From: an uncultured Candidatus Saccharibacteria bacterium
Lineage (GTDB): Bacteria; Patescibacteriota; Doudnabacteria; UBA920
Reading direction: 5' to 3'
DNA: 50,068 bases
Assembly: GCA_964434195.1 (NCBI GenBank)
Contig: CAYSUI010000009.1
Coordinates: 1-50,068 of the forward strand
Under the pieces are notes generated by a model. It did no database searches and was not told the origin of the DNA. It worked only from the letters and a program-made list of their open reading frames with translations. The position numbers and the translations under genes are program-made. Positions 15,472 through 47,062 of this stretch are shown in pieces; position 1 is the first letter of the stretch, and every line of letters starts with the position of its first letter.

Positions 15472-16773
15472 CATTTCTAAACTTACCTGTCTCTTAAGCA
15501 CTCGACCCAGAAGCAGGGGCGTAATAAGAGTGGAGACTAGAATAGTCCCCATGACCATGGAAAATATTTCCGGGGTCATAACACCCACCTGCTGACCAAT
15601 GGCAGCAAAGATTAGTCCGACTTCGCCGCGGGGAATCATACTAATTCCCACCGCGAGCCGTTCGCCTTTTACTGCTGCTAGCCCAGCAACCACCTTGCCC
15701 GCACATGCGAGGACTGAGCAAATCAGAATCGCGAATAGCGATTCTTTTTTAAACAAAACCCACATGTCGAGTTTCATGCCACTCGTCACAAAGAATACAG
15801 GCGTAGCAATGGCAATGAAGCTCATGAGAATTTCTTCTACATGCTTTTCGACCATTGTTTTTTTGAGTTCCGCTAATTTTCCATCCAACTCAACCCTTTT
15901 TTCTGTTAAGACTTGCTGAAGCTCTTCGGTGAAGCGAGGCACTGCGAAGTCTTTGAAGGCAACTTCGGTGAGGAACAACCCTGCACAATAAGCACCTACG
16001 AACTCAGCAAGCCCCACCTTGGAAGCGAGCGCGGCCAGACTAAAGCCGATACCCAGAGCGAAGGCAATTTTCATATTCTCGCCGCTGGAAATTTTGGCAA
16101 ATAGCCGACCCACGGGTACGTGGAGCCTCATACCAACTACGATCGAGCCGACCACGAACCCGATGGATACCAGCATAATCCACATAGCGCCAGTGACCGT
16201 AAGTGACTCTCCAGAAGTGCCGATTGCCGCTGCCTGTACTACAGCCAAAATGAGCAGTCCCAGAATATCGTCTATTACCGCGGCGCCGGTGACTGTTCTT
16301 CCTAGCCGAGAATTGGCTTTACCAAAACTGGAAAGAATATCAACGGGAATACTGACTGATGTCGCCGTAAGCGCGGCTCCAATAAACACATGAGCAAGCT
16401 TTGAGGCGCCCGGGAATAGCCACGGGCCGATGACGTAGGCACCAAAGACAAAAGGTACCACCACGCCAATAACGGCAATTACGAGACTCCGCACCCCAAC
16501 TTTCAGCATTTCATGCGGATTGGTTTCGAGACCAATTTTGAACATCAGCAGGTTAATGCCGATGTTGGCGATAACACTTACCGCATGTTCATCTAGTACC
16601 ATGGATGAACCAGAAAAGAATCCAGCCACAAGAGTACCAAAGAGAATTTGGCCGAACACGGGAGCTAGACCGATACGCTTACACAACTCCCCCGCTGCGA
16701 TTGCTGCCACAATAATCCCGACGGCCAGTAAAGATATTCCGTACACGCCGCTTGCCGACAACAATATAACCAT
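15454..16773 (-). CDS. Cation:proton antiporter (CPA2 / Na+/H+ exchanger family)
   Basis: 439-aa polytopic protein with typical Kef/NapA-like helices; G+C visibly above the flanks (many antisense ORFs in the track). Confidence 0.8.
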   Translation of the reverse strand: MVILLSASGVYGISLLAVGIIVAAIAAGELCKRIGLAPVFGQILFGTLVAGFFSGSSMVLDEHAVSVIANIGINLLMFKIGLETNPHEMLKVGVRSLVIAVIGVVVPFVFGAYVIGPWLFPGASKLAHVFIGAALTATSVSIPVDILSSFGKANSRLGRTVTGAAVIDDILGLLILAVVQAAAIGTSGESLTVTGAMWIMLVSIGFVVGSIVVGMRLHVPVGRLFAKISSGENMKIAFALGIGFSLAALASKVGLAEFVGAYCAGLFLTEVAFKDFAVPRFTEELQQVLTEKRVELDGKLAELKKTMVEKHVEEILMSFIAIATPVFFVTSGMKLDMWVLFKKESLFAILICSVLACAGKVVAGLAAVKGERLAVGISMIPRGEVGLIFAAIGQQVGVMTPEIFSMVMGTILVSTLITPLLLGRVLKRQVSLEMQKAPA

Positions 16774-32064: not shown

Positions 32065-33807
32065 ATGACTAAGAAAATTCGCACTAGATTTCCCTTGCTG
32101 AAAGGAGAAAAAGGGAAAAATATCCCCAAGGAGAGAATGCAAATTAGAAATCAGTTACTCGAGGAGTTGCGTAAAATTTCTAACAAAGCACTCTTGGATC
32201 TTCAATACTTTCAACCAGAAGTCGGTTGCCTGAATCAATGTCGTTTCTGCAGCCAGGAAGCTGGGACAACAAAGTGGATGCTAAGTAAAGAATCTTTAGA
32301 GGATTTAATTGCGGCTATAAGTCTGCGTCTTAAAGAATCTTCTATTGAACTAGCTTATGGAAGAATCAACCATAGACAGGGTGTGATCTTCCCATACTTT
32401 GATAATGATGTAATGTCATACCCTTATTTGTATGATTACATTCGTTTGATAAAAGAAAACTTAAAGTGCAAAGTCCGCATAGCCACAGTTGGATATTCGC
32501 GCCACAATCATGAACTAACTCAAATGCATGAAAAAATTGCGAATGAGTTTCCAGATGTTTTTGCGGGTATTCGATTTTCTTTCACACCCTACACTTCAGG
32601 TTGGGTTAGTCTGAACGGACTTCAAACATCGAGAGATGAATTTGAACAGGATTTTGCGAATGCGCTTAGTACCTATTTTCCTCTTATGGAGAGAATTGGA
32701 CTTGGCAAGTCTACTGCATGTGTTGAACTAAGGTTTCACCCTAATGTACAGAGATGTGGGGTAGTAGACACCTTTCTTTACAATCATCATGTTATTAAGG
32801 CTGGACCTCACTTGCTTATTCGACAGGAATCCGGGAGCACATCTCTTGAGGTAACTGAGATTGAGTCTATTCATGGAAGAGATGGTATATATAATAAACA
32901 GTCTGTTCCATATTTTTGGCTAACTGACGACATGATGGTTGCCGATACACCCTGGGAAGATACTGTTACCAAAATCCTCACGGGGGATAATGCACTGAAG
33001 CATAAATATAAAGTGGTACCTGTCCACCTTTTTTCTAATGCTGACGGACCTTACTATGCGGCATCTGCCGATTTCCTACCGACCGGTGAATACAAGGCGT
33101 TCCACATTTACCCCAAAACAAGTTCTCGTTCAGTAAGCGGATACAACGATGCAGAGAGATTTCTCTTGAATGCTATACTCAGACATAAACGTGAAAGAGG
33201 TATAGCGCGTAGAGAGACATTCCCAGATGCTACTTGGGCAGATGTTGAAAGTATTGTAGACAAGCTACGGTTCTTGCTTGAAGAAAAAGAGCAATACGAT
33301 GTGAGAGCCGCGCTGCACATTTCGCAACATATTCTGCCAATTGTGGAGAGTTACATACGGTGCTTAAAGGCTTCTGGACTACCACCCGATCTATTCTTTG
33401 ACCCGCGTTTTACGATAGATACCGGTCAAATAGTTAACCAGGGTAGGGCTAAGGAAATCTTTAAAGGCCTTGTTACTAAGGATGAAGAACCTTTGACTCC
33501 AAGGGAAGCAACGGCGTACGGCAATACAAGCGTATCTACTTTAAGAGGTAAGGTATGGCGACTTGCGCCGGTTCCGTATTCGGTGAATAGGGTACTTTCT
33601 GCTTCTAAGGCTGGTGGTAAAAATTTTTCGTCTCAAATTTCAGGACAGATGTCTTTGCAACAACTTAGCGAAAAGACACTGCGACCTTATGATGCAAAAA
33701 CGAATGAACCCTTGCCTCATTTTGTAATTAGCGGATTGGATATAATTTCGGTTTCGCAAAAAACAAATGAGTTAAGTTATCTAAAACCTGGTATGAAAAA
33801 GGAGTGA
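32065..33807 (+). CDS. Radical SAM domain protein (580 aa) with a long uncharacterised C-terminal region
   Basis: CLNQCRFC = CX3CX2C near the N-terminus; AAGGAGG SD; TGA stop overlaps the start region of the next gene. Confidence 0.75.
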   Translation: MTKKIRTRFPLLKGEKGKNIPKERMQIRNQLLEELRKISNKALLDLQYFQPEVGCLNQCRFCSQEAGTTKWMLSKESLEDLIAAISLRLKESSIELAYGRINHRQGVIFPYFDNDVMSYPYLYDYIRLIKENLKCKVRIATVGYSRHNHELTQMHEKIANEFPDVFAGIRFSFTPYTSGWVSLNGLQTSRDEFEQDFANALSTYFPLMERIGLGKSTACVELRFHPNVQRCGVVDTFLYNHHVIKAGPHLLIRQESGSTSLEVTEIESIHGRDGIYNKQSVPYFWLTDDMMVADTPWEDTVTKILTGDNALKHKYKVVPVHLFSNADGPYYAASADFLPTGEYKAFHIYPKTSSRSVSGYNDAERFLLNAILRHKRERGIARRETFPDATWADVESIVDKLRFLLEEKEQYDVRAALHISQHILPIVESYIRCLKASGLPPDLFFDPRFTIDTGQIVNQGRAKEIFKGLVTKDEEPLTPREATAYGNTSVSTLRGKVWRLAPVPYSVNRVLSASKAGGKNFSSQISGQMSLQQLSEKTLRPYDAKTNEPLPHFVISGLDIISVSQKTNELSYLKPGMKKE

Positions 33808-33809
33808 AG

Positions 33810-34928
33810 ATGCTTTTACTGAAGGACTTTGAAAAATACATGAAAAGGAAGGGGTATGCCTGGTTACCAGACCAGGGTTTAGTTTCTACGTCCAGTAGAC
33901 AGTTGTTTAATATAGCTGGAGCAGCACCGCTACTAGCTACTGGGTATCCGCGTGATACTGAAAGTAAACTCGCGGCTTCATCACAAAGTTGTCTGCGAAT
34001 GAGTAGCTTTGATACTGTTGGTACGGAAAACAATAAGCATATTTTTTTCTATATGCTTGGACACTTCTCTTTTTTCCAAAGAGATGAGGTCCAAACCAAA
34101 TACCAAAGTTGCTATGAGGCTATAGAATTTCTGTGTCATGTACTTGGACTCTCAGAATCTAGGTTAAGGGTTTCTACACACCCAGATGATGAAGTTACCC
34201 TTAAGACGTGGGGATTACTAGGCTTGCAAGAGAAACAACTAGAGAGTAAGACTAGTAAACATACTGCGGAATTTATAACGGATAAGAGTGGCTACAGAAC
34301 AAAGGTAGGTTACCAACTTTCATCTGGAAGGGTACTTTACTTTTGGGATTTGGTGTTCGTTCAATTCGACTCACCTAATTTTCTTAAACTCATGCCACAA
34401 ATACTAATGGAGTCTGGTATGTCACTTGACCGCTTGTATACTGTACGAGAGGACAAGGAGCACGATTACGAGACTTCGTATTGGCTCCCCTATCTGCACA
34501 ACTTATCCGAAAGGATGCAAATTCCTGTAGACAAAACAGTTTACAGGATAGCGGACATTACCCAAGCCGCAATTACCCTACTTTCCTGCGGACTTAAACC
34601 CGGACCCAAAAAACAGGAATATGTTCTTAGGAAACTCCTGAGAGAGATTTTTACCCTTACCTATATCCTAAATATCTCACCCGAACACCCACTTGCTTGT
34701 GGCCTGCAACGATCTAGCTTTCTTGCTGGTCGCAAACCTGAGTCGCAGGTAATAACAGACAAATTCAATTTGGAACTAGATGCGTGGAAAAAGGTAATTG
34801 AAAAAGGTAAAACTAAACTGCGAGAACTTATGATTAACCGTACTGCCCTGACTAAGGAGAACAGACGGTTACTAAATGAAGCTTTCGGTTTAAACGACTT
34901 AATAATAGAACACACACTGGCCAACTAA
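33810..34928 (+). CDS. Alanyl-tRNA synthetase catalytic/tRNA-recognition domain paralogue lacking editing and C-Ala domains
   Basis: Ordered matches to AlaRS blocks: LFNIAGAAP, SQSCLR, HIFFYMLGHFSF, WDLVFVQFD, ESGMSLDRL, RIADITQA...QEYVLRKLLREI, LLNEAFGLNDLI. GGAG 5 nt upstream of ATG 33810. Confidence 0.75.
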   Translation: MLLLKDFEKYMKRKGYAWLPDQGLVSTSSRQLFNIAGAAPLLATGYPRDTESKLAASSQSCLRMSSFDTVGTENNKHIFFYMLGHFSFFQRDEVQTKYQSCYEAIEFLCHVLGLSESRLRVSTHPDDEVTLKTWGLLGLQEKQLESKTSKHTAEFITDKSGYRTKVGYQLSSGRVLYFWDLVFVQFDSPNFLKLMPQILMESGMSLDRLYTVREDKEHDYETSYWLPYLHNLSERMQIPVDKTVYRIADITQAAITLLSCGLKPGPKKQEYVLRKLLREIFTLTYILNISPEHPLACGLQRSSFLAGRKPESQVITDKFNLELDAWKKVIEKGKTKLRELMINRTALTKENRRLLNEAFGLNDLIIEHTLAN

Positions 34929-34994
34929 TGGCTAGTTTTTTATTGGAATAGGGTCATATCCAAGTTGTTATCTATAAACTTCGCCCACTCTTTG

Positions 34995-35558
34995 TTACTT
35001 ACTGGTATTTCCTTCTTCTGCATCGAATGTAACCTGAAAAATAGTATCCGCAGGGAAACGCCCCTCTAAAACGTGCTTACCGGATTTGGGATTTCCATCG
35101 TCTAGCTCTGAAGTAATAACTATGGTTCTGTAATCTGACTTATCTCCATCTACTATAAAATCTAGTCTGGCTTCTTTGGTGGTAGGGTCGTATACTAATT
35201 TTCCTGTTGAAAAATAATCTTTTGTTAAAGGATTTTTTACCAGCCAACCTTCATAAAAATCTGTACCTGGGAGTGCTGGTAAGTTTTTAGCGATTACGCG
35301 ATGATATGTCTTTCCTTCGAAAACACCTAACCAAGCTGATCCATTAGCTCCGGATTTCGAGACATCTTTTATATTTACAGAGGCGGATTTAGTTATAACT
35401 GCGTCAAAATCTTTTTTTATTATTGGTGTTTCTTCAATTTTTTGGGTAGTCGTTATGGACTCCTCTGGTAACTTTGTATTCTCTCTCATTGAAGCATAGA
35501 CTACCCCGATACATACTAGAATTAACACTATTGCGATAGCCCATATCTTTTTGTTCAT
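34995..35558 (-). CDS. Membrane-anchored extracytoplasmic protein (anti-sigma-K RskA C-terminal-like domain, weak)
   Basis: N-terminal TM anchor; LPALPGTDFYEGWLV pattern. Confidence 0.4.
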   Translation of the reverse strand: MNKKIWAIAIVLILVCIGVVYASMRENTKLPEESITTTQKIEETPIIKKDFDAVITKSASVNIKDVSKSGANGSAWLGVFEGKTYHRVIAKNLPALPGTDFYEGWLVKNPLTKDYFSTGKLVYDPTTKEARLDFIVDGDKSDYRTIVITSELDDGNPKSGKHVLEGRFPADTIFQVTFDAEEGNTSK

Positions 35559-35688
35559 TGATGATGATTTATTATTGAATCTTATTGGTGTGAATTCCCG
35601 AAGCTAATAAAACTTTCCTATATAGTTACTCTAGTAAAAAATTTCTCTTCCTTTTTTCATTATAGTATATTTTTGGAGTCGCTAAGCT

Positions 35689-35876
35689 AAAAGGTATCAT
35701 ATCCTTTGTTTTTACCATTCCCCTGCTTTTTCAGAATCCCGACCAGATAATGTGATTAAATTATGCAGATTAGGACGTGAAATTTAGTACCTACCTGCTA
35801 GGGATCAAGTTCTACAGCAGGAGTGAGTGGTGGGATGGTATTAGCGAATTAAATTGTCATGCTCCTCTTGCCTTTG
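35689..35876 (+). repeat. S-family repeat copy S1 (most diverged full copy)
   Basis: aaaaggtatcatatcctttgtttttaccattcccctgc ... ttatgcagattaggacgt ... cagcaggagtgagtggtgggatggtattagcgaa ... gctcctcttgcc. Confidence 0.7.
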
Positions 35877-35936
35877 TTTCTATATACTATCCTGACACAT
35901 CGTTAGGATTCTCTTTTTTTCAGGCTCGGTATTTCC

Positions 35937-36557
35937 TTATTTTTTCCTTATCTCTCTTCGATCCACCAACTTTTCTTTTAAAAATTGTATGTAATAAGCT
36001 CTTCTGTCAGGATCTCTCAAGGTTGCAATTAAGGTTAAGACCAAACCAATGGGATCTCTCATGCCGGGATAAAAATTTGCTCGCACCTCTGAAATAAAAC
36101 TTCCTGGTATGAATTTTGGATCGGTTAAGTGATATAGCTCATGACTCTCTACAAACTTTTTTACTCTGTCTGGAAGATCCGCTCTTACATAAGCAATTCC
36201 TGTTCCTTCATAAGCTTCTCCAAAATGTAAACCGATAAAATCCTTGGTTACGTATCTTACCAAATATTCCTGTCCATCAATTTCTACTTTTTTTTCGGAA
36301 ATAATACCTAGCTCCTTAAATTCTTCCGACACTTCTGCATTCCTATCATTATTTACAACTATCTCATCAATCTCTCCTCTTACCTCACTCAGATCTCTCT
36401 CTGAAGCTTGCTGATAATCTCTCCCCTTATCTACTCTTAGTTCTACTTTTGGCTTTTCAGGAGTATTCTCTGGAAACTTAAAATCCGCGTTATTTATTTC
36501 TGTATTATTTTCTAACTCATTAGACATGTAATCATTATAATTGAAATACTTTCCCAT
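35937..36557 (-). CDS. Hypothetical protein with an HExxH zinc-metallopeptidase-like motif
   Basis: VESHELYHLTD; acidic low-complexity N-terminal half. Confidence 0.5.
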   Translation of the reverse strand: MGKYFNYNDYMSNELENNTEINNADFKFPENTPEKPKVELRVDKGRDYQQASERDLSEVRGEIDEIVVNNDRNAEVSEEFKELGIISEKKVEIDGQEYLVRYVTKDFIGLHFGEAYEGTGIAYVRADLPDRVKKFVESHELYHLTDPKFIPGSFISEVRANFYPGMRDPIGLVLTLIATLRDPDRRAYYIQFLKEKLVDRREIRKK

Positions 36558-36669
36558 AGAAAAGCTAGATCTTAGAGACGGTACCCTTTTGATAGTAGGA
36601 CATTGCCGAAGATCACCTTTATAAGGTGGCCTTTGCTTCTGCCATGATTGTGTACAAAAAAACAGCTCA

Positions 36670-36873
36670 CTAGGGGCTGCATTTGGTGATTGGCATTGCG
36701 AATTCCTCAGTTACATGCACAAGCAGCGCTACTGTTACTGGGAATGACATTAGCGCAAAGAGCAGAAATACCCCTGCGTTCTCAAACAGCATTGCCAGGA
36801 GTGTACAGAGATACAGCGCTTGCGCGATACAGAGATCCGACTTAATTTGCGGACCAAAAGGGCTTTGGTACAT
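36670..36873 (-). CDS. Small hydrophobic protein (67 aa, 2 TM)
   Basis: AAGGAGG 9 nt upstream of the ATG on the minus strand. Preferred over the overlapping plus-strand ORF 36683..36949. Confidence 0.5.
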   Translation of the reverse strand: MYQSPFGPQIKSDLCIAQALYLCTLLAMLFENAGVFLLFALMSFPVTVALLVHVTEEFAMPITKCSP

Positions 36874-36986
36874 AGCAAAACATCCTCCTTTCGCGAGGAT
36901 TATTACATACTACTTCAACTTGGGCAACGGCCATTTCAGCAACCTTTGAAGTCGGTTATACTGGTAGTAACTTAATACTTACTTCT

Positions 36987-37544
36987 ATGGATTTATTTAA
37001 AACTTTAAAAGATGCGCCTGGCTTGGTACTATCTCCTTTCATTAAACAAGAGATGCAAAACAGGAAGCACATGTACCGAACGCTTAAGGCACGTGCTAAT
37101 CAGAAACGTACTGCGTATGAAAAAATCGCAGACTATATAAGCACTGTGGTCGGGAGTTTTACTTTTCTAGTACTTAATGCAATCTGGTTCTGTGTTTGGA
37201 TACTTATTAATACCGATAACTTTTTTGGAATATTTACAGTTTTCGATCCCTTTCCGTTTGGTTTTCTAACCATGATTGTTTCTTTGGAAGCCATAGTACT
37301 TTCGATTATTGTTTTAATTTCTCAGAATAGAAATAGCCGAGTGGATGATCTACGCGAAGAAGTACATCTGCAAGTTAACGTAATGGCGGAGCAGGAAATA
37401 ACTAAAATTATTAAGATGCTTGCAAAACTTTCCGAGAAAAATGGCATTGATATTTCTCAAGATAGAGAACTGCAAATGATGCTAAAACCATTGCAGGCTC
37501 AAAATCTAGAGAAAAATTTAGAGGAAGAGATAAGCAAGGGTTAA
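36987..37544 (+). CDS. DUF1003 family membrane protein
   Basis: FDPFPFGFLTMIVSLEAIVLSIIVLISQNR core typical of DUF1003. Confidence 0.75.
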   Translation: MDLFKTLKDAPGLVLSPFIKQEMQNRKHMYRTLKARANQKRTAYEKIADYISTVVGSFTFLVLNAIWFCVWILINTDNFFGIFTVFDPFPFGFLTMIVSLEAIVLSIIVLISQNRNSRVDDLREEVHLQVNVMAEQEITKIIKMLAKLSEKNGIDISQDRELQMMLKPLQAQNLEKNLEEEISKG

Positions 37545-37573
37545 TTTTTCAACTCAGCAATAAAGGAGTGCCT

Positions 37574-37762
37574 ATGCAGCAAAGAATCGATGGGGATTTT
37601 CGAGTGATTTTTAAAGGTATACCCTATTTCCCACTATTTTTTATTTCAAAGACAATTCTGAAACCCGGAGATGGTAAGAGGTGTGCATGCGTATACGCAC
37701 TGCACATTACCCCTTTCTTTACAATCGGATTCAACTGGAGAACAAAACAAGATATCGCATGA
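37574..37762 (+). CDS. Possible small protein (62 aa)
   Basis: AAAGGAG 5 nt upstream of ATG 37574; the stop lies in the loop of the terminator at 37749-37776. Confidence 0.35.
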   Translation: MQQRIDGDFRVIFKGIPYFPLFFISKTILKPGDGKRCACVYALHITPFFTIGFNWRTKQDIA

Positions 37763-37776
37763 GCGATATCTTTTTT
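37749..37776 (+). terminator. Intrinsic terminator
   Basis: gatatcgc-atga-gcgatatc-tttttt. Confidence 0.8.
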
Positions 37777-37826
37777 ATATTTATTAACCACTCTCTTTAT
37801 TTTCTCAGTGGTTGCCAGGTGGTTGC

Positions 37827-37944
37827 GTCCCTCCACCAGCTGGTGGAGGGACGTATAGCTTTAACAAAAACAAAAGAGGGACTTGTTAGCAGCAGGTGTG
37901 AGCGGTGGGATGGTATTAGAAATTCTACGAAGTTCCCCTGTTGA
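37827..37944 (+). repeat. S-family repeat copy S2, starting with a perfect 26-nt palindrome
   Basis: gtccctccaccag/ctggtggagggac then gtatagctttaacaaaaacaaaagagggacttgttagcagcaggtgtgagcggtgggatggtattagaaattctacgaagttcccctgttga. Confidence 0.85.
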
Positions 37945-38031
37945 AAGTACTAACCATTTTTGACTTTAGTTTTTCCCATTGACAGGTATTTATCCTATAC
38001 CCTATGATTAAATGACCTTAATTATATATTT

Positions 38032-38271
38032 ATGAGCGATACTGACTTTGCTCCATTACTTACATATTTAGACGAGAAGTTCCAAGAGCAGGACAAACGG
38101 TTTGATAAAATGGAAACTGATATTGGAGAACTTCGGACATCGGTTGATAAACTTGCTCACCACGTACTATCTTTCCAGCAAGAAATGACTATTATGACTA
38201 TGAAGGTTGGGAGAATGGAAAGTTGGATACAGCAAGTAGCTGCTAAGGTTGGTGTTGAATATAAAGCTTAG
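38032..38271 (+). CDS. Small coiled-coil protein (79 aa), paralogue of 4012..4248
   Basis: Collinear similarity to the 78-aa ORF at 4012; terminator follows. Confidence 0.65.
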   Translation: MSDTDFAPLLTYLDEKFQEQDKRFDKMETDIGELRTSVDKLAHHVLSFQQEMTIMTMKVGRMESWIQQVAAKVGVEYKA

Positions 38272-38297
38272 AAAGACACTTGAGCGGTGTCTTTTTT
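38272..38297 (+). terminator. Intrinsic terminator
   Basis: aagacac-ttgagcg-gtgtctt-tttt. Confidence 0.75.
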
Positions 38298-38306
38298 GTG
38301 ACGGTT

Positions 38307-38366
38307 AAAGGGTCATGTCCCCTTTGTTTTTCCTTTGTTTTTCCCTTTGTTTTTTTTGTTTTTTAC
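38307..38366 (+). repeat. T-family hairpin followed by a short tandem repeat of cctttgttttt
   Basis: aaagggtcatgtcccctttgttttt-cctttgttttt-ccctttgtttttttt-gtttttt. Confidence 0.7.
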
Positions 38367-38468
38367 GCGAAAGAGTATTTAAGCACTTTTGGGGTTTATG
38401 GTCAATACGAGGATTGCAGAAAATTAGCGAAGTTGTCGTAATTACGACGAGTTTACTAATTTGTTTTA

Positions 38469-38684
38469 CTATTCCAGAATAATACTGAGGGCAAAAATAC
38501 AGATACTCATACTCATTGCCCCTAAAATAGACCTTAACATGACTTTGTTTTTATTTAGCAGACCACCTTCATCTTGTAATTTATAGAACTCTGTAGGATA
38601 TTTTGTTCTAACTATCTGAATTTCCCGAGAAGTCCAGATAATTAATGTCAGCAAAATTCCAACAACTACGGTATGTAGCCACAA
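38469..38684 (-). CDS. Small membrane protein; the reading frame stays open and hydrophobic upstream of the TTG start
   Basis: In-frame upstream extension ...VTSALVFYVLSGGYGIYLIFGNPGS precedes LWLHTVVVGILL, but has no ATG/GTG/TTG after the TAA at about 38792. Confidence 0.45.
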   Translation of the reverse strand: MWLHTVVVGILLTLIIWTSREIQIVRTKYPTEFYKLQDEGGLLNKNKVMLRSILGAMSMSICIFALSIILE

Positions 38685-38875
38685 GGACCCAGGGTTACCA
38701 AATATTAAATATATTCCATACCCCCCGCTTAGAACATAGAAGACGAGGGCAGAGGTTACTTTTTTCGAGATACTTTTATTTATTTACTCTTGCGTCTCCT
38801 GGGTAGATATTGTTTCCATACTTTAATATTAGCCATCTTAGCTCCCCTTGCGAGAGTTGCTTTTGTTGGCATTAC

Positions 38876-39280
38876 CTATAATTGCTGTTTGAATAAGGTT
38901 TTTTTGGTCGCAAAATATATTGCGGTCGAAGCAACGACTGCAAAGATTGTACCTTTTATAATATACCAATCACTTTGCCTCTCTTCGATCTGATTCCATG
39001 CACTTGTTATGGCAAAGACCAAAGTCAAGACAATGAGAACTTTTTTAAATGTATTAATATTTACAACTAACTTCTCCCCTATTACTGCAAATCCAATAAG
39101 AAATAGACCTATAAATATTTCCGTTAACGTATAAAGAACGAAGGCGATTGACAGTACTCCCCCTATAGCGACTCCTGGGTTGTCTCGGAAAATAATATAA
39201 GCCAATCTAATAGTGTCGTAACTATCATATAGGAGGTAAGATGCGATTACAATGCAAAAAATTTTTAGTAGGTATTTCAT
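38876..39280 (-). CDS. Membrane protein (134 aa, 4 TM)
   Basis: Hydrophobic helices; ATG start. Confidence 0.55.
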   Translation of the reverse strand: MKYLLKIFCIVIASYLLYDSYDTIRLAYIIFRDNPGVAIGGVLSIAFVLYTLTEIFIGLFLIGFAVIGEKLVVNINTFKKVLIVLTLVFAITSAWNQIEERQSDWYIIKGTIFAVVASTAIYFATKKTLFKQQL

Positions 39281-39361
39281 CTTCTATCTTTATTTAATTA
39301 CTACCATTATACACCCAAGCTAATATGGCGATTTTTGGTAATGCTAAACGCGCGCTAATTT

Positions 39362-39512
39362 TTATGCAGGGATGGGACGTATAGCTTTAGTGCTCACCGA
39401 AGAGGGACTTGTTAGCAGCAGGCGTGAGTGGTGGGATGGTATTAGAAATCCCACAAAGCTCCTCTTGCGAGGGTGACCTTAGTTTAAAGGATCATGTCCC
39501 TTTTGTTTTTTG
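39362..39512 (+). repeat. S-family repeat copy S3 (contains a 34-codon ATG ORF at 39372..39476) ending in a T hairpin
   Basis: ttatgcagggatgggacgtatagctttagtgctcaccgaagagggacttgttagcagcaggcgtgagtggtgggatggtattagaaatcccacaaagctcctcttgcgagggtgacc...aaaggatcatgtcccttttgtttttt. Confidence 0.85.
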
Positions 39513-39534
39513 ACTTTGGAATATTTTCGATTTC

Positions 39535-40437
39535 TTGCGATACTATGAGAGATTTAATTTTAAGAAATTTATGAGCGGAAATTCTGAATTTAATACCTTC
39601 ATGGGAGAAGTGCAACCAAAACCAAAATTAGGTGCAATCGAGTTACTAGAAGAATTAGATAAAAAAGAGAGCGAGGAAGCGCTTTCCATAGAGTACTCAC
39701 TTATCGAAAGCGTTAGAGAATTAAATGAAACTTATAGCACTTATGCAGATCAACTCAATTCGATAAGAAGAGAATTGGGGCTTGAAAATATAGATTTTAA
39801 ACCTGAGGACTATCGTTTAATAAAACCTACGGTTTACGACACCAGTCCATTCTTAACTAAATATGGTAAAGCAGGTGCATTTCATGATCCTATAACCGGA
39901 GTGATTTTTTTACGCTTTGACCTAGAAGCATATGGGTCGGCCGATGGAAACAAGGCCTATTACCATTATGTGGTGGGTCACGAAACCACGCATAAAAGTA
40001 TGGCGGGGTATGGGATTGGAAGATATTCAGAAGATTTAAATGAAGGAATGACGGAAGTAATAAATAGACAGATCTTTCATGACACCATAATACCCAGACT
40101 GAGACTGGGAAAACAAAGTCATGAGAATGACGAGTATATTAGAAGGTACGAACCAACTGTTGATGGAATTAAAATTCGAGAAGATGATATTTTATATTCG
40201 GATGAAGATGTAGATACTCTTGTGTATACAAGGGTAAGGGAGACCCGACTTATCGAAATGATTAAAGCTTTGTCCCCTGAGTGTTATGAACAACTTTTAT
40301 CTGCATGCTTTCGGGGAGAAGATGAAGAAGCTCGCGAGATAATATCTAAATATATGGGAGAAGATTGGGCAAAAAAATTTGGCAACCGTAGATTTAGCGT
40401 GCTCGATTTATATAGAGAATTAGAAAAGATAAGCTGA
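39535..40437 (+). CDS. Hypothetical protein with an HExxH metallopeptidase-like motif (start may be ATG 39571)
   Basis: YVVGHETTHKS with downstream NEGMTE; TGA stop. Confidence 0.55.
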   Translation: MRYYERFNFKKFMSGNSEFNTFMGEVQPKPKLGAIELLEELDKKESEEALSIEYSLIESVRELNETYSTYADQLNSIRRELGLENIDFKPEDYRLIKPTVYDTSPFLTKYGKAGAFHDPITGVIFLRFDLEAYGSADGNKAYYHYVVGHETTHKSMAGYGIGRYSEDLNEGMTEVINRQIFHDTIIPRLRLGKQSHENDEYIRRYEPTVDGIKIREDDILYSDEDVDTLVYTRVRETRLIEMIKALSPECYEQLLSACFRGEDEEAREIISKYMGEDWAKKFGNRRFSVLDLYRELEKIS

Positions 40438-40449
40438 TCCGAGAAAGGC

Positions 40450-40641
40450 AAAAGGGAGATTATACTTTGTTTTACCATTCCCCTGCGAAGCTGATCTTCG
40501 GTTATAGTTTTAGCAAAAACAAAAGAGGGACTTGTTAGCAGTAGGCGTGAGTGGTGGGATGGTATTAGAAATTCCACAAAGCTCCCCTTGCGAAGATGAC
40601 CTGGGTTTAAAAAACAAAGGGTCATGTCCCCTTTGTTTTTC
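40450..40641 (+). repeat. S-family repeat copy S4 ending in a T hairpin
   Basis: aaaagggagattatactttgttttaccattcccctgcgaag...aaaagagggacttgttagcagtaggcgtgagtggtgggatggtattagaaattccacaaagctccccttgcgaagatgacc...caaagggtcatgtcccctttgttttt. Confidence 0.85.
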
Positions 40642-40710
40642 TTACAGAATTCGAAATGTGAAGATGCAGAATAATGTCTTTTTTCTCTTGATTTTTTTAC
40701 AATATAAATT

Positions 40711-41223
40711 TCAGTGCGTTAGAAATGGAGATACAATTTCATGGACTCGTTCCATGGTAATACCATGATGTTGTTCTCGGGCTAATGGATGATCTGTGTG
40801 TTCGAGTTCAATTTTAGGTCGCGAACCACGCTCTTGCTGATGAACGTGGGTTTTTAAATCTAATGTTTCTGGGTAACCGTCGATGCTATTGGATAGCCAA
40901 CCGAAATAGGGTGGTTCTTCTGCTCTATGATCTGATTCCCACGTATCCACATAACGATTGAAGTTTTTTTCGTTTAAAGAAACCCAGACACCGTAACTGA
41001 ACTTTTCTTCTGAATTAATTATGGGAATCTCTAAAACACCACGTATAAAGAAGTGTCCGTTCCTTAAAATATATACGTCGGATGTTAACGTCTTTTCTGA
41101 TTCTATATCTTCTGGATCGTAATATAGAGGTTTATCGTAACCAATTGCTAATGGAAATTCATCGTGATATTTATCACAAGTACTGCAAGTAAAACCCATG
41201 AAATTTGATATTAATAGCACCAC
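40711..41223 (-). CDS. DUF2199 family protein (likely start ATG 41199, MGFTCSTC)
   Basis: CSTC...FSYGVWVSL...YFGWLSN...HPLAREQHHGIT pattern. Confidence 0.6.
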   Translation of the reverse strand: MVLLISNFMGFTCSTCDKYHDEFPLAIGYDKPLYYDPEDIESEKTLTSDVYILRNGHFFIRGVLEIPIINSEEKFSYGVWVSLNEKNFNRYVDTWESDHRAEEPPYFGWLSNSIDGYPETLDLKTHVHQQERGSRPKIELEHTDHPLAREQHHGITMERVHEIVSPFLTH

Positions 41224-41232
41224 TATCTTATC

Positions 41233-41449
41233 AAAAAGGATGAGCGGTGGCTAATTCATTTTCGATTATTTGGGAATGAAATAAAAAAAGGTTCCTGACC
41301 CCTTTTGTATTCTTTATAGACAAAGAAAGTCCCCTACCCTTACAATGGGCTCCGGTTCAGGAACCAGGAAGACCAGGTGGTTTGCTTGAGAGAGAAGTGA
41401 TTGCGTTTAAAAAGATATAAAAACAAAGGGTCATGTCCCCTTTGTTTTT
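41233..41449 (+). repeat. Degenerate S-family copy S5 ending in a T hairpin
   Basis: aaaaaggatgagcggtggctaattc resembles the S core gtgagcggtgggatggtattag; ends caaagggtcatgtcccctttgtttttt followed by ccatgcag. Confidence 0.4.
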
Positions 41450-41463
41450 TCCATGCAGTTTCT

Positions 41464-42015
41464 TCAAGGAGAAATGCCTGTATTACCTTCAATCAGATTT
41501 ATTATGTAGTCAAGCTCAGGGATTCGCAACCGCTGCTCTTCTAATAATTCTTTGGTAAAAAGTTTCTCGTATTCTCTTGCTTCTGATCTTTTCTCTTTTT
41601 TTATATGGATTGATTCAAACTCTGACTTGCACCACTTAGATTTTTTTTCTGTGAATGATTTTCCACCATTCAGGATGGACAGCAATAACGCTTCTAAACA
41701 TGGAGTATTTTCAATAATAATAATACCTCTTTTACGGGCCTCATCTCTGGCTTCCTGCATCTCCTTCTCTGATTTATCGTTATCAACGAAAACCACTTTA
41801 CTATCGAATGCTCCAGGTCTTTTTTGAGCATCCAATACCACGTTTCTAGGAGTACCACCCTTACCTTTACCGATAGTCACGACTACATCACTATTAAAAG
41901 CGTAGAGACCTTTCAATCTTTTTAAAAACATCTCCTCACCAAGCCCCTCGCCAAATACGAGCAATGTTTTCTTTGCAGATCGTGGTTTTTGTTTATATGG
42001 ATCGTTTTGCGACAT
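41464..42015 (-). CDS. RloB-like (TOPRIM/OLD-nuclease-related) protein, partner of the upstream ATPase
   Basis: LLVFGEGLGEEMFLK N-terminus and VVFVDNDKSE...GIIIIENTPCLEALLLSIL, matching the RloB pattern (EGxxE ... D-x-D ... SNPCFElWlL). ATG lies 2 nt after the ATPase stop. Confidence 0.65.
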   Translation of the reverse strand: MSQNDPYKQKPRSAKKTLLVFGEGLGEEMFLKRLKGLYAFNSDVVVTIGKGKGGTPRNVVLDAQKRPGAFDSKVVFVDNDKSEKEMQEARDEARKRGIIIIENTPCLEALLLSILNGGKSFTEKKSKWCKSEFESIHIKKEKRSEAREYEKLFTKELLEEQRLRIPELDYIINLIEGNTGISP

Positions 42016-42017
42016 AT

Positions 42018-43226
42018 TTATAATTTTGGCACCGCACCGTAAGCACCAGCAATATATTTTGTATAATAATTATCATCTGCCCTGACCCCACTCATCTCAT
42101 CTAGTCGCCAAGCTTCACTGACCCCCTTTTCATTCTTTTCTATTAGAATGATCTGGTATTTATCCAATTTACTTAAAACCCTGTGGCTGTGAGTACTAAA
42201 TAAAATTTGAGCATTTTTCGGATTTGTATTTGGCTCCAAAAACAATTCAAATAGACTCATTACCATATCAGGGTGCAAGTTTACATCAAATTCATCTATA
42301 ACTGCGGTACCACCATTCAGCAAAACCTGGAGAATAGTCTTCAGTAACACAAATAACTGTTTAGTGCCTGAGGATTCGTACTGAATAGGTAGGTACCCTT
42401 TATGGCCGTCGAAAGAATGGACTACTTGTACATTTATAGAAAGATCATTTGCTTTCTTCTCTTTAAGGATATTAAACGCTTCCAGGCCAAGATCAAAACG
42501 AGACAATAACTTCTCGGCCTCCTTCTTTATTTGTTCATTGTCGCTGTAAAAGTCTAAAGCTTCGATCAATTGCTGTCCTGCATTGGGCAACAAATGATCC
42601 CCTGCCCATCCCGCCTCTACAACATTTGTCTCCAGGTGATTCCAAAAATTTGCTATTTCCTTACTTTCTCCATGATTTAGTCGTATCGCGATACTCACTA
42701 TACTTGCATTTGTACGAAGTAAACCTTCAAAACCTTTTGGTAAATCAAAGTTTTTTTCATCTAAGATGTACACTTTATTTTCTTCATCCCAAGTCCGTAC
42801 GAATAGTTTTTTACTTGAATAGTTTTCTTTAATCTTGCTTTTTAAGATCAATTCTTCTGATACAATCTTGGAAGCATTTAAAATAAAATTATACGTGTAT
42901 ATCTTCTCTTGGATTTCAAATGTGACACCAAGCTCAGAATTACTATCTTTATATCCATCAAACATACAAGGACGTAAAGGCAACCTAGCTGCAGGATCAC
43001 TATTAAATGAATCAATTATCAACCATTTTAATAGGGGCAAGACTTTTAAAAGATTAGTCTTCCCCGACGCGTTGGATCCTATTACTGTCTCAATCTTTGA
43101 TAGTCGTGCACCCGACAATGATGAAAAATAACCGTGATTATCCGGTGCGTTGTCATTTACCACGAAACTCACGTTCGCGTCTTCCCCAAAGGAGTAGAAA
43201 TTTTTACAATTGAAAGAATGGATCAT
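42018..43226 (-). CDS. AAA_21/ABC-type ATPase of the OLD/AbiLi/AriA class
   Basis: Walker A GSNASGKT, signature-like ESSGTKQLF, Walker B VIDEFDVNLHP, H-loop FSTHS, C-terminal AYGAVP. Confidence 0.8.
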   Translation of the reverse strand: MIHSFNCKNFYSFGEDANVSFVVNDNAPDNHGYFSSLSGARLSKIETVIGSNASGKTNLLKVLPLLKWLIIDSFNSDPAARLPLRPCMFDGYKDSNSELGVTFEIQEKIYTYNFILNASKIVSEELILKSKIKENYSSKKLFVRTWDEENKVYILDEKNFDLPKGFEGLLRTNASIVSIAIRLNHGESKEIANFWNHLETNVVEAGWAGDHLLPNAGQQLIEALDFYSDNEQIKKEAEKLLSRFDLGLEAFNILKEKKANDLSINVQVVHSFDGHKGYLPIQYESSGTKQLFVLLKTILQVLLNGGTAVIDEFDVNLHPDMVMSLFELFLEPNTNPKNAQILFSTHSHRVLSKLDKYQIILIEKNEKGVSEAWRLDEMSGVRADDNYYTKYIAGAYGAVPKL

Positions 43227-43576
43227 ATTTGATAATTAATCTTTGTCTAATAATATTATAATATGACTATTATTAAATTTCAATGATTTAAACAAAATTA
43301 TGTTAAAATTGGCTAAATATTGCTTATTTTTACCCAATTTTAAGCAGTTTTTAAATGTGTTAAAAATGGTTTCTAAGCAAATAAAAAGCCTCAATTTGTG
43401 CCATTAGAAAACAAGTCACCCCCTGCCAAATAGGGGGAGTGATTTATTTTAACTGTTTCTATTCTGATGTAACAGCATTTCTACTGCAAGATTTAAATAA
43501 CCAGCTTGGGTGATTTGGTCGCTGCTTACAAAGTAGATTTCGTAGACGTTTTTGACTCCATTTTCAAACCACATAT

Positions 43577-43669: not shown

Positions 43670-46600
43670 TTAAAACCTATCATCCTCCCTAATAAACGTA
43701 AGGAAGAGAATTGGAATAACAAACAGTGTCAGGAATGAGGAGAGGAAGAGGCCGAAGATAACGGCACTGCCTAGACCTCGCCAGAATGCGTCGCTGATTG
43801 TTATAGGGACAATACCGAGAATGGTGCTTACGGAAGTTATGAAGATAGCTTCAAATCTTGCTTTACCTGCATCTATAACTGCTTCGTAAAATGGAATACC
43901 ACTGCTGATGTTTAGGTTAATTTTATCTACTAAGATAATTGCGTTTTTAACCACAATTCCGAAGAGGGCTAAGATACCTATGAGCCCCGGGAATCCGAGA
44001 GGCATATTGAATATAGCTAGACCTAAGAAGACACCAATAAGTGCGAGTGGAATAGTCATGAGCACAATGAGTGACTTACGGAAACTATTAAACTGAACGA
44101 TCATCGTTGCCACAATGAGCACCATAGCTACCACCATAGCCTGAATAATTGAGATAACCGATTTCTGATTTTCTTCGTTCTGGCCACCGAATTTTATTTC
44201 GTAACCTGCTGGCAGATTGTAATCCTTGGTTTTCTCTCTAAAAGCGGCAAGAATGCTGGTAGAGTTTGCTTCTCCGCTCGCATCTGCTTTTAAAGTAACG
44301 GTTCGTTTTTGATCGATACGACTTATAGAATCTACCGAAGGGCGTAATTCAATAGTTGCAACATCTTTTAGATAGACCGGTTGCTTTCTAAGATTGAGTA
44401 TCTGTAGGTTTTGAATACTCTCTAGGGTTGGAATTTGGTTGGAACCAAAGTTGGCGTTAATTTTTATCTCCTCCCCTTCTTCTAGAATGGTAGACACTTC
44501 TGTCCCAGAGATTGCCATACGCAATACACTTCCAACATAGGCTGCGTTTAAATTATTTTGTTCAAGCTTTACAGGATCCAGAACAAATGTAAATTCTGGA
44601 GCGGAATCTTTGAGTGAAATATCTATGTTTACGGCACCAGGAATTTCTTTTAGTTTGCTTTCGTAATCGCGCACTATACGATCTAAGGTCTTTAGGTCCT
44701 CACCAGAAATTTGTGCCTCGAAAGCAGCTCCGGTAGGAGGACCACCTGCTTGGGCAGAAACTGAAATTACCGCTCCGCTAATTTCCGATAATTTATTTCT
44801 GAATACACTTTCTAACTCATACGATTCAGCACTTCTCTTATCTCTATCTACTAAGGTAACGTTTACCGAAGCTGTATTACTTGAAGCACGACCTCCTTGA
44901 TTGGCCGCACTTGGTGACCCTGTTGAACTGGTAAAGTTTGCAATTTCCTTGAAATTGACAAGCTTTGTTTCTACTTCTTTAACTACTTTGTCGGTTTCTT
45001 CTAGGGTTGTACCAACTGGTGTTCTAATATCTATGAATACATAGTCAGAATCTTGCTTGGGGAAGAATTCGCTTCTAACTATTCCTGTAACTGGCATTAG
45101 CACAGCAATAACGAAAGCGGCAGAAACGATACCAAGCGTAATTCTTCGATTTCTTCGATTGACTGTAACTTTCCTTAGTGCTCTCTCGTAAGGGATTAGG
45201 AATCGGTCAAAATGAATGACTCCATGCATTAACCGTGTAAAGAAACTCTCGTTAGAACGAGAATTACCTTGAGCAACTAACTTAGCCTTAATTAACGCTT
45301 CATCTTTCCATTCTGCTTTTACCAGTCGAGCGTTTTCGATTAGCTTTTCCCTACCGCCGGATTCATACCATCCTAGCATTCTAATTAGAATAGCCACTAA
45401 GACAGCACCGAGAATGAAACTAATAAACCCACCACTCATGAATAAATAACCTGCGACACCTAGCAAGAGCAGCTCTACTATAAAGAAGAATTTCTTAGTG
45501 AGTCTGATTCTCTCCAAAACTGCTGCCAAAGGGTGGTTTATCATGAGAGCGACAAACAAACTAGAAATTAACGTGATGGTTATAGTAATTGGAATAGATT
45601 TTAGATACTCGCCAATAATACCTGTAGAGAACAACAACGGTAAGAATGCCCAGACTGTTGTGAGAGTTGTTGTTGTTAATACTACTTTGAAATCGTTTAG
45701 AACCAATAGCACTGCTTCTTCTGGAGTGAACTTACCGCTCTTTAAATACTGCTTGGTTGCGGACACAACCACAATAGCATCGTCCACCAACAGACCGAGA
45801 GCAAGTATTAAAGAGAATGTCGTAAGAAAGTTGAGCGAGACACCAATTAGATTCAGAACAGTAAACGTAGAGAAGAATACCAACGGAATAGCCAGACCGG
45901 CGACAAAAGCTTCTTTAAGACCTACGATTAAAAACAATAAAGCAAAGACTAGAAGAATGGTTGTAATAAAGTCGTGACCGAGCTGATTAAAATCATCCCT
46001 GACTATTTTTGCGAAATCGTTAGTTATATCGTAATGGATACCTGCGGGCATTGTTTTTACCAATCTATCCGCGGTGGCTTTTGCTTGGTCGGCTGTATCT
46101 AGAATGGAACTACCAGTACGTTTGATTATCGAGAGGGTTACTGCATTTTGTGGTTTTGAACCCTTAATGGATAACCTAGAGAAGGATGTTTTTTTAATTG
46201 CCCTTTCTGTTACCTGAGCGATATCTTTAACATAGACAACTGAGCCAGTATCGTTATGACTTACTGGAATATTACCTATAGCTTCTTTTGTGTATACCCT
46301 TGAATCTGTTCTCACAGAGTACACAAATTTTTCACCGTCAAAGTTACCTGCTGGAAATGCTAAATTGGTAGCTCTAATTGCATTATTAGCCTGGTCTGAG
46401 GATACGTTGTAGTAAACAAGCTTGCTTGGATCGTAGGATACTTCGAACTCTTTTTCATCGCCACCAGACAATCTTACTTCACGGACTCCAGGTATTTTTT
46501 CTAACTCATCTTTTACGTCTTCACCTGCTTGGCGCATGGTAAAGCCGTCGTATGGCCCTGTTAGAACCATGGTCCAAATTGGTTGGTCGTCTAGAGAGAT

Positions 46601-47062
46601 TTCTTGTACAACTGGTTCTTTAGCATCTTCAGGAAGGTCTGGTTTTACGCTATCGACCTTGTCTTTTAATCTTCTTACTGCGTCTTCAATGTTTTCATCC
46701 GAATTAAATTCTACAGTTAATACAGATACAGAGTTTGAGGAATTAGAAGAAACTTTATCCAGCCCTTTTAAGCCTGCAATTTTAGCTTCGAGTTTTTTTG
46801 TTACTAACTCTTCGATATCTGAGGGACTTGCTCCAGGGTATGCGACACTAACAATTGCGATAGGAATTTTTACCTCGGGATTAGATTCTCTTGGGAGTTT
46901 AATAAAGGAGTAAATACCCGCTGTACTTACAAGTACAATGAGTAATAGGACGACTCGAAAATTTACCACGAAAAAATTGAGCCAACTTTTTTTAAGTTCT
47001 GGTTTAAATTCGAGCTGATCGAGATAACGCTCGTCTGATGTTTTTGGTTGTTGTTCGTTCAT
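43670..47062 (-). CDS. RND family efflux transporter permease (AcrB/AcrD/AcrF-like)
   Basis: 1130 aa, two 6-TM bundles with large loops, N-terminal FVVNFRVVLLLIVL...; typical AcrB_AcrD_AcrF architecture. Confidence 0.9.
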   Translation of the reverse strand: MNEQQPKTSDERYLDQLEFKPELKKSWLNFFVVNFRVVLLLIVLVSTAGIYSFIKLPRESNPEVKIPIAIVSVAYPGASPSDIEELVTKKLEAKIAGLKGLDKVSSNSSNSVSVLTVEFNSDENIEDAVRRLKDKVDSVKPDLPEDAKEPVVQEISLDDQPIWTMVLTGPYDGFTMRQAGEDVKDELEKIPGVREVRLSGGDEKEFEVSYDPSKLVYYNVSSDQANNAIRATNLAFPAGNFDGEKFVYSVRTDSRVYTKEAIGNIPVSHNDTGSVVYVKDIAQVTERAIKKTSFSRLSIKGSKPQNAVTLSIIKRTGSSILDTADQAKATADRLVKTMPAGIHYDITNDFAKIVRDDFNQLGHDFITTILLVFALLFLIVGLKEAFVAGLAIPLVFFSTFTVLNLIGVSLNFLTTFSLILALGLLVDDAIVVVSATKQYLKSGKFTPEEAVLLVLNDFKVVLTTTTLTTVWAFLPLLFSTGIIGEYLKSIPITITITLISSLFVALMINHPLAAVLERIRLTKKFFFIVELLLLGVAGYLFMSGGFISFILGAVLVAILIRMLGWYESGGREKLIENARLVKAEWKDEALIKAKLVAQGNSRSNESFFTRLMHGVIHFDRFLIPYERALRKVTVNRRNRRITLGIVSAAFVIAVLMPVTGIVRSEFFPKQDSDYVFIDIRTPVGTTLEETDKVVKEVETKLVNFKEIANFTSSTGSPSAANQGGRASSNTASVNVTLVDRDKRSAESYELESVFRNKLSEISGAVISVSAQAGGPPTGAAFEAQISGEDLKTLDRIVRDYESKLKEIPGAVNIDISLKDSAPEFTFVLDPVKLEQNNLNAAYVGSVLRMAISGTEVSTILEEGEEIKINANFGSNQIPTLESIQNLQILNLRKQPVYLKDVATIELRPSVDSISRIDQKRTVTLKADASGEANSTSILAAFREKTKDYNLPAGYEIKFGGQNEENQKSVISIIQAMVVAMVLIVATMIVQFNSFRKSLIVLMTIPLALIGVFLGLAIFNMPLGFPGLIGILALFGIVVKNAIILVDKINLNISSGIPFYEAVIDAGKARFEAIFITSVSTILGIVPITISDAFWRGLGSAVIFGLFLSSFLTLFVIPILFLTFIREDDRF

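Follow-up and report, generated by a model that had tools for sequence, protein, structure and literature searches.

DUF3761 ancestry of a short direct repeat in a variable gene array of a Candidatus Saccharibacteria genome

The S repeat and the gene array around it

The stretch of DNA considered here (the window) is the entire 50,068-bp contig CAYSUI010000009.1 (C9) of an uncultured Candidatus Saccharibacteria bacterium, whose assembled genome amounts to 1.41 Mb in 49 contigs. Between an AlaX-like gene (33804-34928) and the gene of an AcrB-type pump (43670-47062) it carries an array of genes and a short repeat, S, all copies of which lie on one strand, within 5 kb, at a single locus. The copies today are direct repeats of about 80-110 nt, interleaved with hairpins of a second family, T, in a strain-variable accessory stretch. 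On the plus strand they are S1 (35764-35844, core 35815-35844), S2 (37839-37919, core 37890-37919), S3 (39365-39445, core 39416-39445) and S4 (40488-40568, core 40539-40568). An earlier note, made from the letters alone, had counted four copies, and four there are, the fourth and more diverged one, S1, falling outside the interval that it covered. The 30-nt core, CAGCAGGCGTGAGTGGTGGGATGGTATTAG, matches the window four times at two mismatches or fewer, and not once in 100 shuffles; a sigma-70-type promoter was not found within it, either by eye or by scan. Two further candidates, a fifth S copy with an internal deletion (about 41340-41418) and a second copy of the distal flank of S1 (the Y flank described below) at about 43450-43470, were rejected, the alignments being unsupportive; around 41340-41418 only a T hairpin and the ~25 nt preceding it align.

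The genes between the copies are a mixed company. The block between S1 and S2 (35845-37838) holds a minus-strand open reading frame (ORF) of 206 aa and a plus-strand DUF1003 gene, and the next interval, between S2 and S3, holds a gene for a 79-aa coiled-coil protein (38032-38271) together with two minus-strand ORFs. Between S3 and S4 lies a gene of 288-300 aa (39571-40437; 288 aa counted from ATG) with an HExxH-like motif, GHETTH, which has no match in Pfam, NCBIfam or PADLOC and which, among 95 genomes of the family, was met only in the two that belong to this genus. The block after S4 (40641-43576) consists of minus-strand genes, namely DUF2199, AbiLii and AbiLi, the last two forming an AbiL-type defence pair (41464-43226; PADLOC AbiLi E 2.5e-69, AbiLii E 9.9e-10; Pfam AAA_21 and RloB).

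A search for more copies, as the earlier note had proposed, found three, designated Sa, Sb and Sc, at the syntenic locus of a same-genus sister genome (G001), which is the sole other genome carrying S; the set therefore comprises seven copies from two related genomes. No copy beyond the four in the window was found in the own genome, and a blastn survey of 40 relatives found S only in the sister genome, besides two matches of 19-25 nt judged to be chance. A degenerate core pattern run against 185,579 species genomes returned the sister genome only; two different core patterns gave no match in the JGI metagenome contigs, the core was found in no viral contig, and the phage and plasmid collections held no match. 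A separate search at class level covered the same 137 genomes as that at order level, and nothing further was gained. A covariance model built from the S copies, against which S1 scores 60.6 bits, gave two weak extra matches only among the 95 genomes of the family. One of these (G103) was set aside as chance, since it lies within a 504-aa ORF and is missing the central 36 positions; the other (G050) is taken up in the next section.

The copies differ in what surrounds the core. The 5' arm is of two kinds, A in S1 and Sa, and B in S2, S3, S4, Sb and Sc, so that five of the seven copies are B-type; the 3' flank is likewise of two kinds, X (AAAT.C.AC...) and Y (CGAATTAAA...). S1, 81 nt long, is followed by the Y flank and then, at 35889-35909 on the plus strand, by a terminator-like hairpin with a T run that stands outside the T family. 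In S2 the X flank comes next and contains the 3' arm of a hairpin (to about 37944), after which a promoter-like TTGACA-18-TATGAT precedes the 79-aa gene. The X flank of S3 (39446-39472, plus strand) contains the hairpin 3' arms ATCCCAC, GCTC and CTTGC, while in S4 the X flank with its hairpin 3' arms reaches to about 40595, and the 5' end is shorter than in the counterpart Sc of the sister genome.

Descent from the tail of a DUF3761 gene

The origin of S became apparent from the covariance match in another genus of the family (G050), which falls on the 3' end of an intact ORF of 160 aa, terminating in CRDGSYSFSQNRRGTCSHHGGVSVWY* (asterisks denote stop codons). By Pfam this ORF is a DUF3761 protein (E 1.9e-24), the covariance model having used only the seven S copies. 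The Pfam model of DUF3761 (PF12587) has 82 positions and a score cut-off of 29 bits, and the DNA was translated for this purpose by reading through stops. S3, the best-preserved copy with 27 codons, matches positions 57-82 of the 82 with 36.2 bits (E 9.7e-9), and Sc scores 36.9 bits; both are thus above the cut-off, and both match only the last 26-30 model positions. S2 (37845-37916, 15.4 bits, with one TGA and one TAG inside the match) and S4 (40503-40565, 16.5 bits, with one TGA and two TAG) remain below it. In the DUF3761 frame S3 reads CRDGTYSFSAHRRGTC*QQA*VVGWY*, with TAG at 39413-39415, TGA at 39425-39427 and the terminal TAG at 39443-39445; Sc reads CRDGSYSFSKNKRGTC*KQS*VVEWC*, and S1, the most decayed of the copies, CRLGREI*YLPARDQVLQQE*VVGWY*. 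For comparison, the C-terminus of the intact proteins runs ...CRDG(T/S)YSFS..R.GTCS.HGGV..WY*.

Over 81 nt S3 is collinear with the intact DUF3761 genes, free of gaps and down to the closing TGG TAT stop, and tblastn of seven intact relatives against S3 gave identities of 62-67% (E 1e-6 to 2e-4). The pattern of change is that of a coding sequence as well: over codons 1-16, the codons in which S3 differs from the seven intact genes divide, in the DUF3761 frame, into 52 synonymous and 19 non-synonymous ones; for the two alternative frames the split is 7:63 and 2:68, and for the intact genes set against each other it is 152:55, all in comparisons that are mutually non-independent. Further on the coding sense is gone, with just 2-3 of 10 residues retained in codons 17-26 of S3, a TGA at codon 21 in all seven copies and a TAG at codon 17 in five of them, the B-type ones. 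Upstream, S3 has a stop three codons before the Pfam match begins. The N-terminal part of DUF3761 is absent at S, where tblastn with the seven intact proteins matches the last 21-27 residues only, and a native, uncorrupted DUF3761 tail occurs in no S copy.

Intact, single-copy DUF3761 genes were found in eight of the 93 other family genomes searched, encoding proteins of 145-212 aa in seven of them and a shorter intact one in the eighth; these proteins of the relatives are small and membrane-anchored or secreted. The own genome, searched with the Pfam model through stops and by tblastn, contains no intact DUF3761 gene and no further DUF3761 match, and the 1.5-kb flanks of the intact genes share no protein with the array of the window. 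A published account (PMC11131426) mentions a DUF3761 domain within a prophage lysis region.

Taken together, the Pfam match, the collinearity, the codon pattern, the in-frame stops and the missing N-terminus show that S descends from a DUF3761 gene, of which each copy is a tail relic together with the former 3' untranslated region (UTR), the latter being whatever follows TATTAG. Recoding of TAG and TGA was considered as another way to account for the stops and was dropped, the long conserved genes of the window being intact under table 11 and S having no upstream reading frame. The earlier note had thought of repeated 3'-end fragments of a gene. This was right in kind, full-length genes with the S C-terminus being in existence and S3 scoring above the Pfam cut-off, but wrong in frame, the DUF3761 frame lying one base upstream of the one proposed. 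A side observation concerns the 5' end of S2, which is abutted by a perfect 26-nt palindrome, GTCCCTCCACCAGCTGGTGGAGGGAC (37822-37847); in the DUF3761 frame it reads ..PPAGGG.. and may be a remnant, with a deletion, of the ..PAGASA.. of the intact genes.

Peptide, hairpin and the T family

The peptides which the earlier note had read from the copies are indeed present in the frame it gave, S2 as RIALTKTKEGLVSSRCERWDGIRNSTKFPC*, S3 as MGRIALVLTEEGLVSSRREWWDGIRNPTKLLLRG* and S4 as VIVLAKTKEGLVSSRREWWDGIRNSTKLPLRR*, all of them ending at TGA; S3 has an ATG at 39372 (ORF 39372-39476, 34 aa), and S2 and S4 are without a start codon in that frame. The excess of synonymous differences, on which the coding interpretation leaned, did not materialize: among the five B-type copies 2 of the 15 variable codons are purely synonymous, and the other five frames show between 2 and 5 such codons. 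The frame stays open through the core in all seven copies, yet openness is uninformative in this place, since four of the six core frames are stop-free in all seven; in Sb, a stop follows immediately after the core. When homologues of the peptide EGLVSSRREWWDGIRN were sought among 1.84 billion representative proteins, only the window's own S2 ORF proved genuine; the three other matches, to long repeat proteins with scores spread over 7-8 stretches, were taken as chance, and no longer protein with the peptide was found. The peptide EGLVSSRREWWDGIRN is an off-frame artefact, shifted by +1 relative to the ancestral DUF3761 frame, and the lack of homologues fits such an off-frame reading. That S encodes a small protein in this frame, for instance the 34-aa ORF of S3, can be granted next to no credence, the open frame and the ATG of S3 having to be set against the codon counts, the missing starts, the stop in Sb, the want of homologues and the fact that another frame explains the sequence.

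The hairpin of the earlier note, gtgggat and atcccac (or its variants attccac and attctac) around a loop, likewise exists and is predicted to fold. Its 5' arms are made of the last codons of the relic, and its 3' arms belong to the former 3' UTR. For S3 the predicted energy is -22.5 kcal/mol (z -2.67 against shuffles), and S2 and S4 also fold better than shuffles (z -3.51 and -2.06), but S1, Sa, Sb and Sc do no better than these (z -0.92, -0.83, -1.14 and +0.53), and the apical stem is missing in S1, Sb and Sc. The variants tcccac, ttccac and ttctac do preserve pairing on the plus strand by way of G-U pairs, as had been pointed out; covariation, however, does not accompany them. In the alignment of the hairpin 85.5% of the cells pair, a percentage reached by 444 of 500 shuffles, not one of the 16 pairs has changed in both partners across the seven copies, and RNAalifold over all seven yields a consensus of -1.53 kcal/mol with a covariation term of -0.24 kcal/mol from which the hairpin is absent. 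All the observed changes are transitions, which are common without constraint. Rfam has nothing over S, neither at gathering scores nor at E up to 10.

These results bear on a functional RNA, which would be either a set of small or 3'-UTR-derived RNAs ending at T or an attenuator leader before the 300-aa gene. In its favor are the folds of S2, S3 and S4, the G-U pairing of the 3'-arm variants, the common strand of all copies and the terminator-shaped hairpin that directly follows S3, S4 and Sb, with another one after S1; in S3 and S4, moreover, the predicted fold lets AAGAGGGAC, from the 5' part of S, pair with GUCCC(C)UUU in the 3' arm of T. Among the sequencing runs listed as carrying this DNA, none is recorded as RNA. 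Yet no gene follows S4 and Sc on the same strand, no terminator follows S2 and Sa, and the tests on pairs, consensus and Rfam speak against it, so that an RNA function of S seems quite unlikely. The hairpin would rather be a complementarity of mutated last codons with the former 3' UTR, to judge from the aligned copies real in S2 to S4, its maintenance being unsupported. Of the two kinds of conservation seen by the earlier note, the peptide-like and the RNA-like, neither was confirmed (2 of 15 codons, none of 16 pairs), and the structured RNA it had envisaged finds no support in covariation.

T and T' hairpins adjoin most S copies. The T palindrome, AAAGGGTCATGTCCCCTTTG, is terminator-shaped and occurs, at three mismatches or fewer, in five copies per genome, those of the own genome all lying in this window. 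One hairpin stands 3' of the 79-aa gene (38301-38331), one directly 3' of S3 (39480-39510), one directly 3' of S4 (40610-40640), and one between the DUF2199 gene and the AbiL pair (41419-41449), the last two being identical in 31 of 31 positions. A T' hairpin followed by ACCATTCCCCTGC is located upstream of S1 (35684-35712), and the same module recurs upstream of S4 (T' at 40445-40473), where T' is 78% complementary to T at 40611-40642, at a distance of 137 nt. It may be added that the DUF2199 gene (40711-41223, minus) is bracketed by the two identical T hairpins in the same orientation (40610-41449), that a weaker T-like hairpin occurs at 41281-41311, and that one T-family hairpin with two mismatches (1188-1207) follows an ORF at 245-1075, distant from the S array. 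At its very start (1-52) the window holds the end of a tRNA, namely its 3' part.

In the sister genome, two perfect inverted T copies (G001:C14, 15179-15198 minus and 15913-15932 plus) flank a 229-aa ORF (L040, 9179-9941) with a Y1_Tnp domain (51.4 bits), IS200-like and RAYT-like. The own assembly has no T-flanked counterpart, only a Y1 gene of 27% identity with different flanking hairpins. Inverted REP elements around a RAYT transposase gene are an arrangement described in two earlier papers (PMC3337134, PMC5581495), one of which (PMC3337134) also characterizes the REPIN as two inverted REPs with a spacer, mobilized by RAYTs. By virtue of the perfect inverted pair around the Y1_Tnp gene the T hairpins of the window can be regarded as a low-copy REP-like family. 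They resemble REP and REPIN elements as short palindromes at gene ends, with an inverted pair flanking a Y1_Tnp gene in the sister genome only, and they are unlike them in having five copies per genome and, in the own assembly, no matching transposase.

The likeness concerns T and not S. It might be extended to S by taking S as the spacer of a REPIN-like unit (T', S, T) copied by a RAYT-like Y1 transposase: T' and T are inverted, 137 nt apart, and enclose S4, the T' module with ACCATTCCCCTGC precedes S1, and a counterpart precedes Sc. Both hairpins are found, however, only at S4; a T-type hairpin is lacking after S2 and Sa, and none stands before S3 and Sb. S copies are confined to one 5-kb locus instead of being dispersed, T is rare in both genomes, and the only transposase of the own assembly is the distant paralogue without T copies. 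A REPIN-like origin of the copies is accordingly very unlikely.

Recombination at the copies

All four combinations of arm and flank are present, namely A-core-Y (S1), A-core-X (Sa), B-core-X (S2, S3, S4 and Sb) and B-core-Y (Sc). Summed over the 21 pairs of copies, the core is 87% identical, the 5' arm 63% and the 3' flank 51%, and the block of identity has a sharp right edge immediately after TATTAG. Repeated exchange within the core follows from the four combinations together with this contrast in identity. Synteny with the sister genome is retained in the flanks, in the 79-aa gene and in the stretch from S3 through the gene to S4 (about 90% identity); it is broken at six points, five of which lie inside S or T or at most 12 nt away, one of them within the T hairpin at 38301-38331 (38322/38323). 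Other breakpoints fall elsewhere in S, within the 5' arm of S1 and Sa and where S4 is truncated at its 5' end. Nothing anywhere in the sister genome was found to match the S1-S2 block or the stretch 38332-39352, and the block after S4 is missing from its syntenic place, only short pieces of it matching elsewhere in that genome. S1 (A-core-Y) and S2 (B-core-X) thus bracket ~2 kb for which the sister genome has no match, and it is there that it carries the hybrid Sa (A-core-X). From the arm combinations and the breakpoints at S and T, the copies are understood as recombination junctions of a variable cassette region. Absence of a coding or covariation signal among the copies, reassorted arms and repeats at the boundaries of insertions and deletions are thus shown for this locus.

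Environmental contigs, placed on the window at 85% likeness and to be taken at contig level as a hint only, point in the same direction: contigs of two other metagenome populations cover 33500-37860 near-identically and almost nothing of 37904-43400. As separate observations, contigs of the runs X9 and X13 have ten letters, CAAAGGGTCA, resembling the 5' arm of T, inserted behind 37788, and in one X9 contig an S4-like copy with its T (40514-40636) runs straight into the beginning of an S2-like copy (37849). Two more peculiarities of the sister genome may be recorded. Its 79-aa gene (L010, 9403-9642, minus) has an in-frame TAG at codon 51, where the window has GAA, and the 28 residues past this TAG are nearly unchanged; and an intergenic stretch of 104 nt just before the AcrB terminator (43447-43550) is 81% identical to G001:C14:12579-12682, on a contig other than that of the syntenic locus.

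Two known systems offer themselves for comparison. Like att repeats in the 3' ends of genes, S copies are direct repeats of a gene tail that bracket DNA absent in a relative, with a hybrid copy in its place; unlike them, the blocks have no integrase in or next to them and no intact target gene at either end, the tails are identically corrupted in every copy, and the blocks measure just 1-3 kb, with one to three genes. The earlier note's idea of att scars was therefore borne out with regard to the bracketed ~2 kb and the hybrid copy, and it failed with regard to integrase and target gene. The second comparison is with integron arrays and with CALIN, clusters of integron attC sites without an integrase. 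Here, too, short recombination-prone repeats in the same orientation separate small unrelated genes, and the arms of the first, inner and last S copies fit serial insertion at one end. On the other hand, the window has no IntI, several genes lie on the opposite strand, no obvious R''/R' boxes of attC were seen in S (compared by eye with the attC consensus), and S copies are alike in sequence, while attC sites are conserved mainly in structure.

A dedicated att or attC-like site, derived from the DUF3761 tail and used by a recombinase encoded elsewhere to shuffle cassettes, would embrace both likenesses, resembling either tandem integrative elements or an integron-like array deprived of its integrase. 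The order of the sister locus, A-core-X [gene] B-core-X [gene] B-core-Y, would result if insertions had followed one another at one end of an A-core-Y site, and the ~2 kb between S1 and S2 with the hybrid opposite is in line with it. The contrast between core and arms and the sharp edge after TATTAG also favor such a site, as does the inverted repeat GTGGGATGG / AAATCCCAC that can be read in the core around the six nucleotides TATTAG, an inverted repeat around a short spacer being the typical layout of a tyrosine-recombinase core. The Y-type copies, however, are without the right half of this inverted repeat; the breakpoints are scattered in S, untidy and not precise; no copy preserves a native DUF3761 tail, there is no intact target gene, and the core was found in no phage, plasmid or viral contig. 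A Pfam search of 40 ORFs of the window and seven of the sister locus found no tyrosine or serine recombinase, and the few of the own genome are on other contigs, two genes of ~330 aa with PF00589 (C26 and C6) and one match to PF00239 (C17). A dedicated site is on balance unlikely. A little less likely still is the further-reaching proposal that the corrupted DUF3761 tail now serves, in the reduced genome of an episymbiont, as the recombination site of an integron-like cassette system with no local integrase, in which small accessory and defence cassettes would be inserted, excised and reshuffled by an enzyme encoded elsewhere (for instance Xer-type or the hairpin-binding Y1 transposase).

We prefer the reading in which each S preserves, as a non-coding relic, the final 27 codons and the stop of a DUF3761 gene along with the former 3' UTR, and in which this relic has been multiplied locally and acts as a recombination junction, and we assign to it a probability of roughly 60%. 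According to this reading the relic would have lost its coding sense in codons 17-25 and would then have been multiplied at the locus, the peptide of its +1 frame being under no selection; the duplicated copies would be passive and would act as short homologies, at which circles, sister chromosomes or incoming DNA may recombine and so add, remove or move blocks. The exchange was presumably ordinary homologous recombination, of the Campbell type or unequal, with no dedicated recombinase, and the relic appears to have no present function of its own.

Several observations weigh against this reading and should be kept in mind. A near-identical core between diverged arms is the expected trace of site-specific crossover, and homologous exchange works poorly on a stretch of ~30 identical bases. 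Compared in their 5' arms (39365-39412 against L010 8065-8112 of the sister genome), S3 and Sc differ mostly at third codon positions of the DUF3761 frame; the ratio of synonymous to non-synonymous codon differences is 5:4 in that frame, whereas the alternative frames give 1:7 and 0:7. There is a hint here that the arms had begun to diverge before coding was lost, in which case a single dead ancestor fails to explain S3 and Sc; the same hint lends something to a dedicated site. As regards RNA, the basal stems persist in six of the seven copies, and together with the pairing between S and T they leave room for a role of this kind, the more so as seven copies from two related genomes give the negative covariation and coding tests weak power.

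With the gene-tail relic the choice between peptide and RNA posed by the earlier note is settled, in that the conservation goes back to a coding sequence, now dead, that had been read out of frame, and not to a new peptide or a proven RNA. A caution for sequence scans goes along with it: relics of this sort mimic peptides in a wrong frame, and hairpins where the gene tail meets the 3' UTR. In kind the object is ordinary, a relic of a gene tail serving as a junction for recombination; what is unusual is the organism and the arrangement. Genomes of Saccharibacteria are small, and the way in which these bacteria exchange accessory genes is, to our knowledge, little understood. Here a 6-kb stretch, with an AbiL-type pair and genus-specific genes, varies between two species and among environmental populations, and the differences fall at gene-tail relics and REP-like hairpins. 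If it were true that this exchange is driven by an enzyme, the locus would represent a simple cassette system in a lineage of the candidate phyla radiation.

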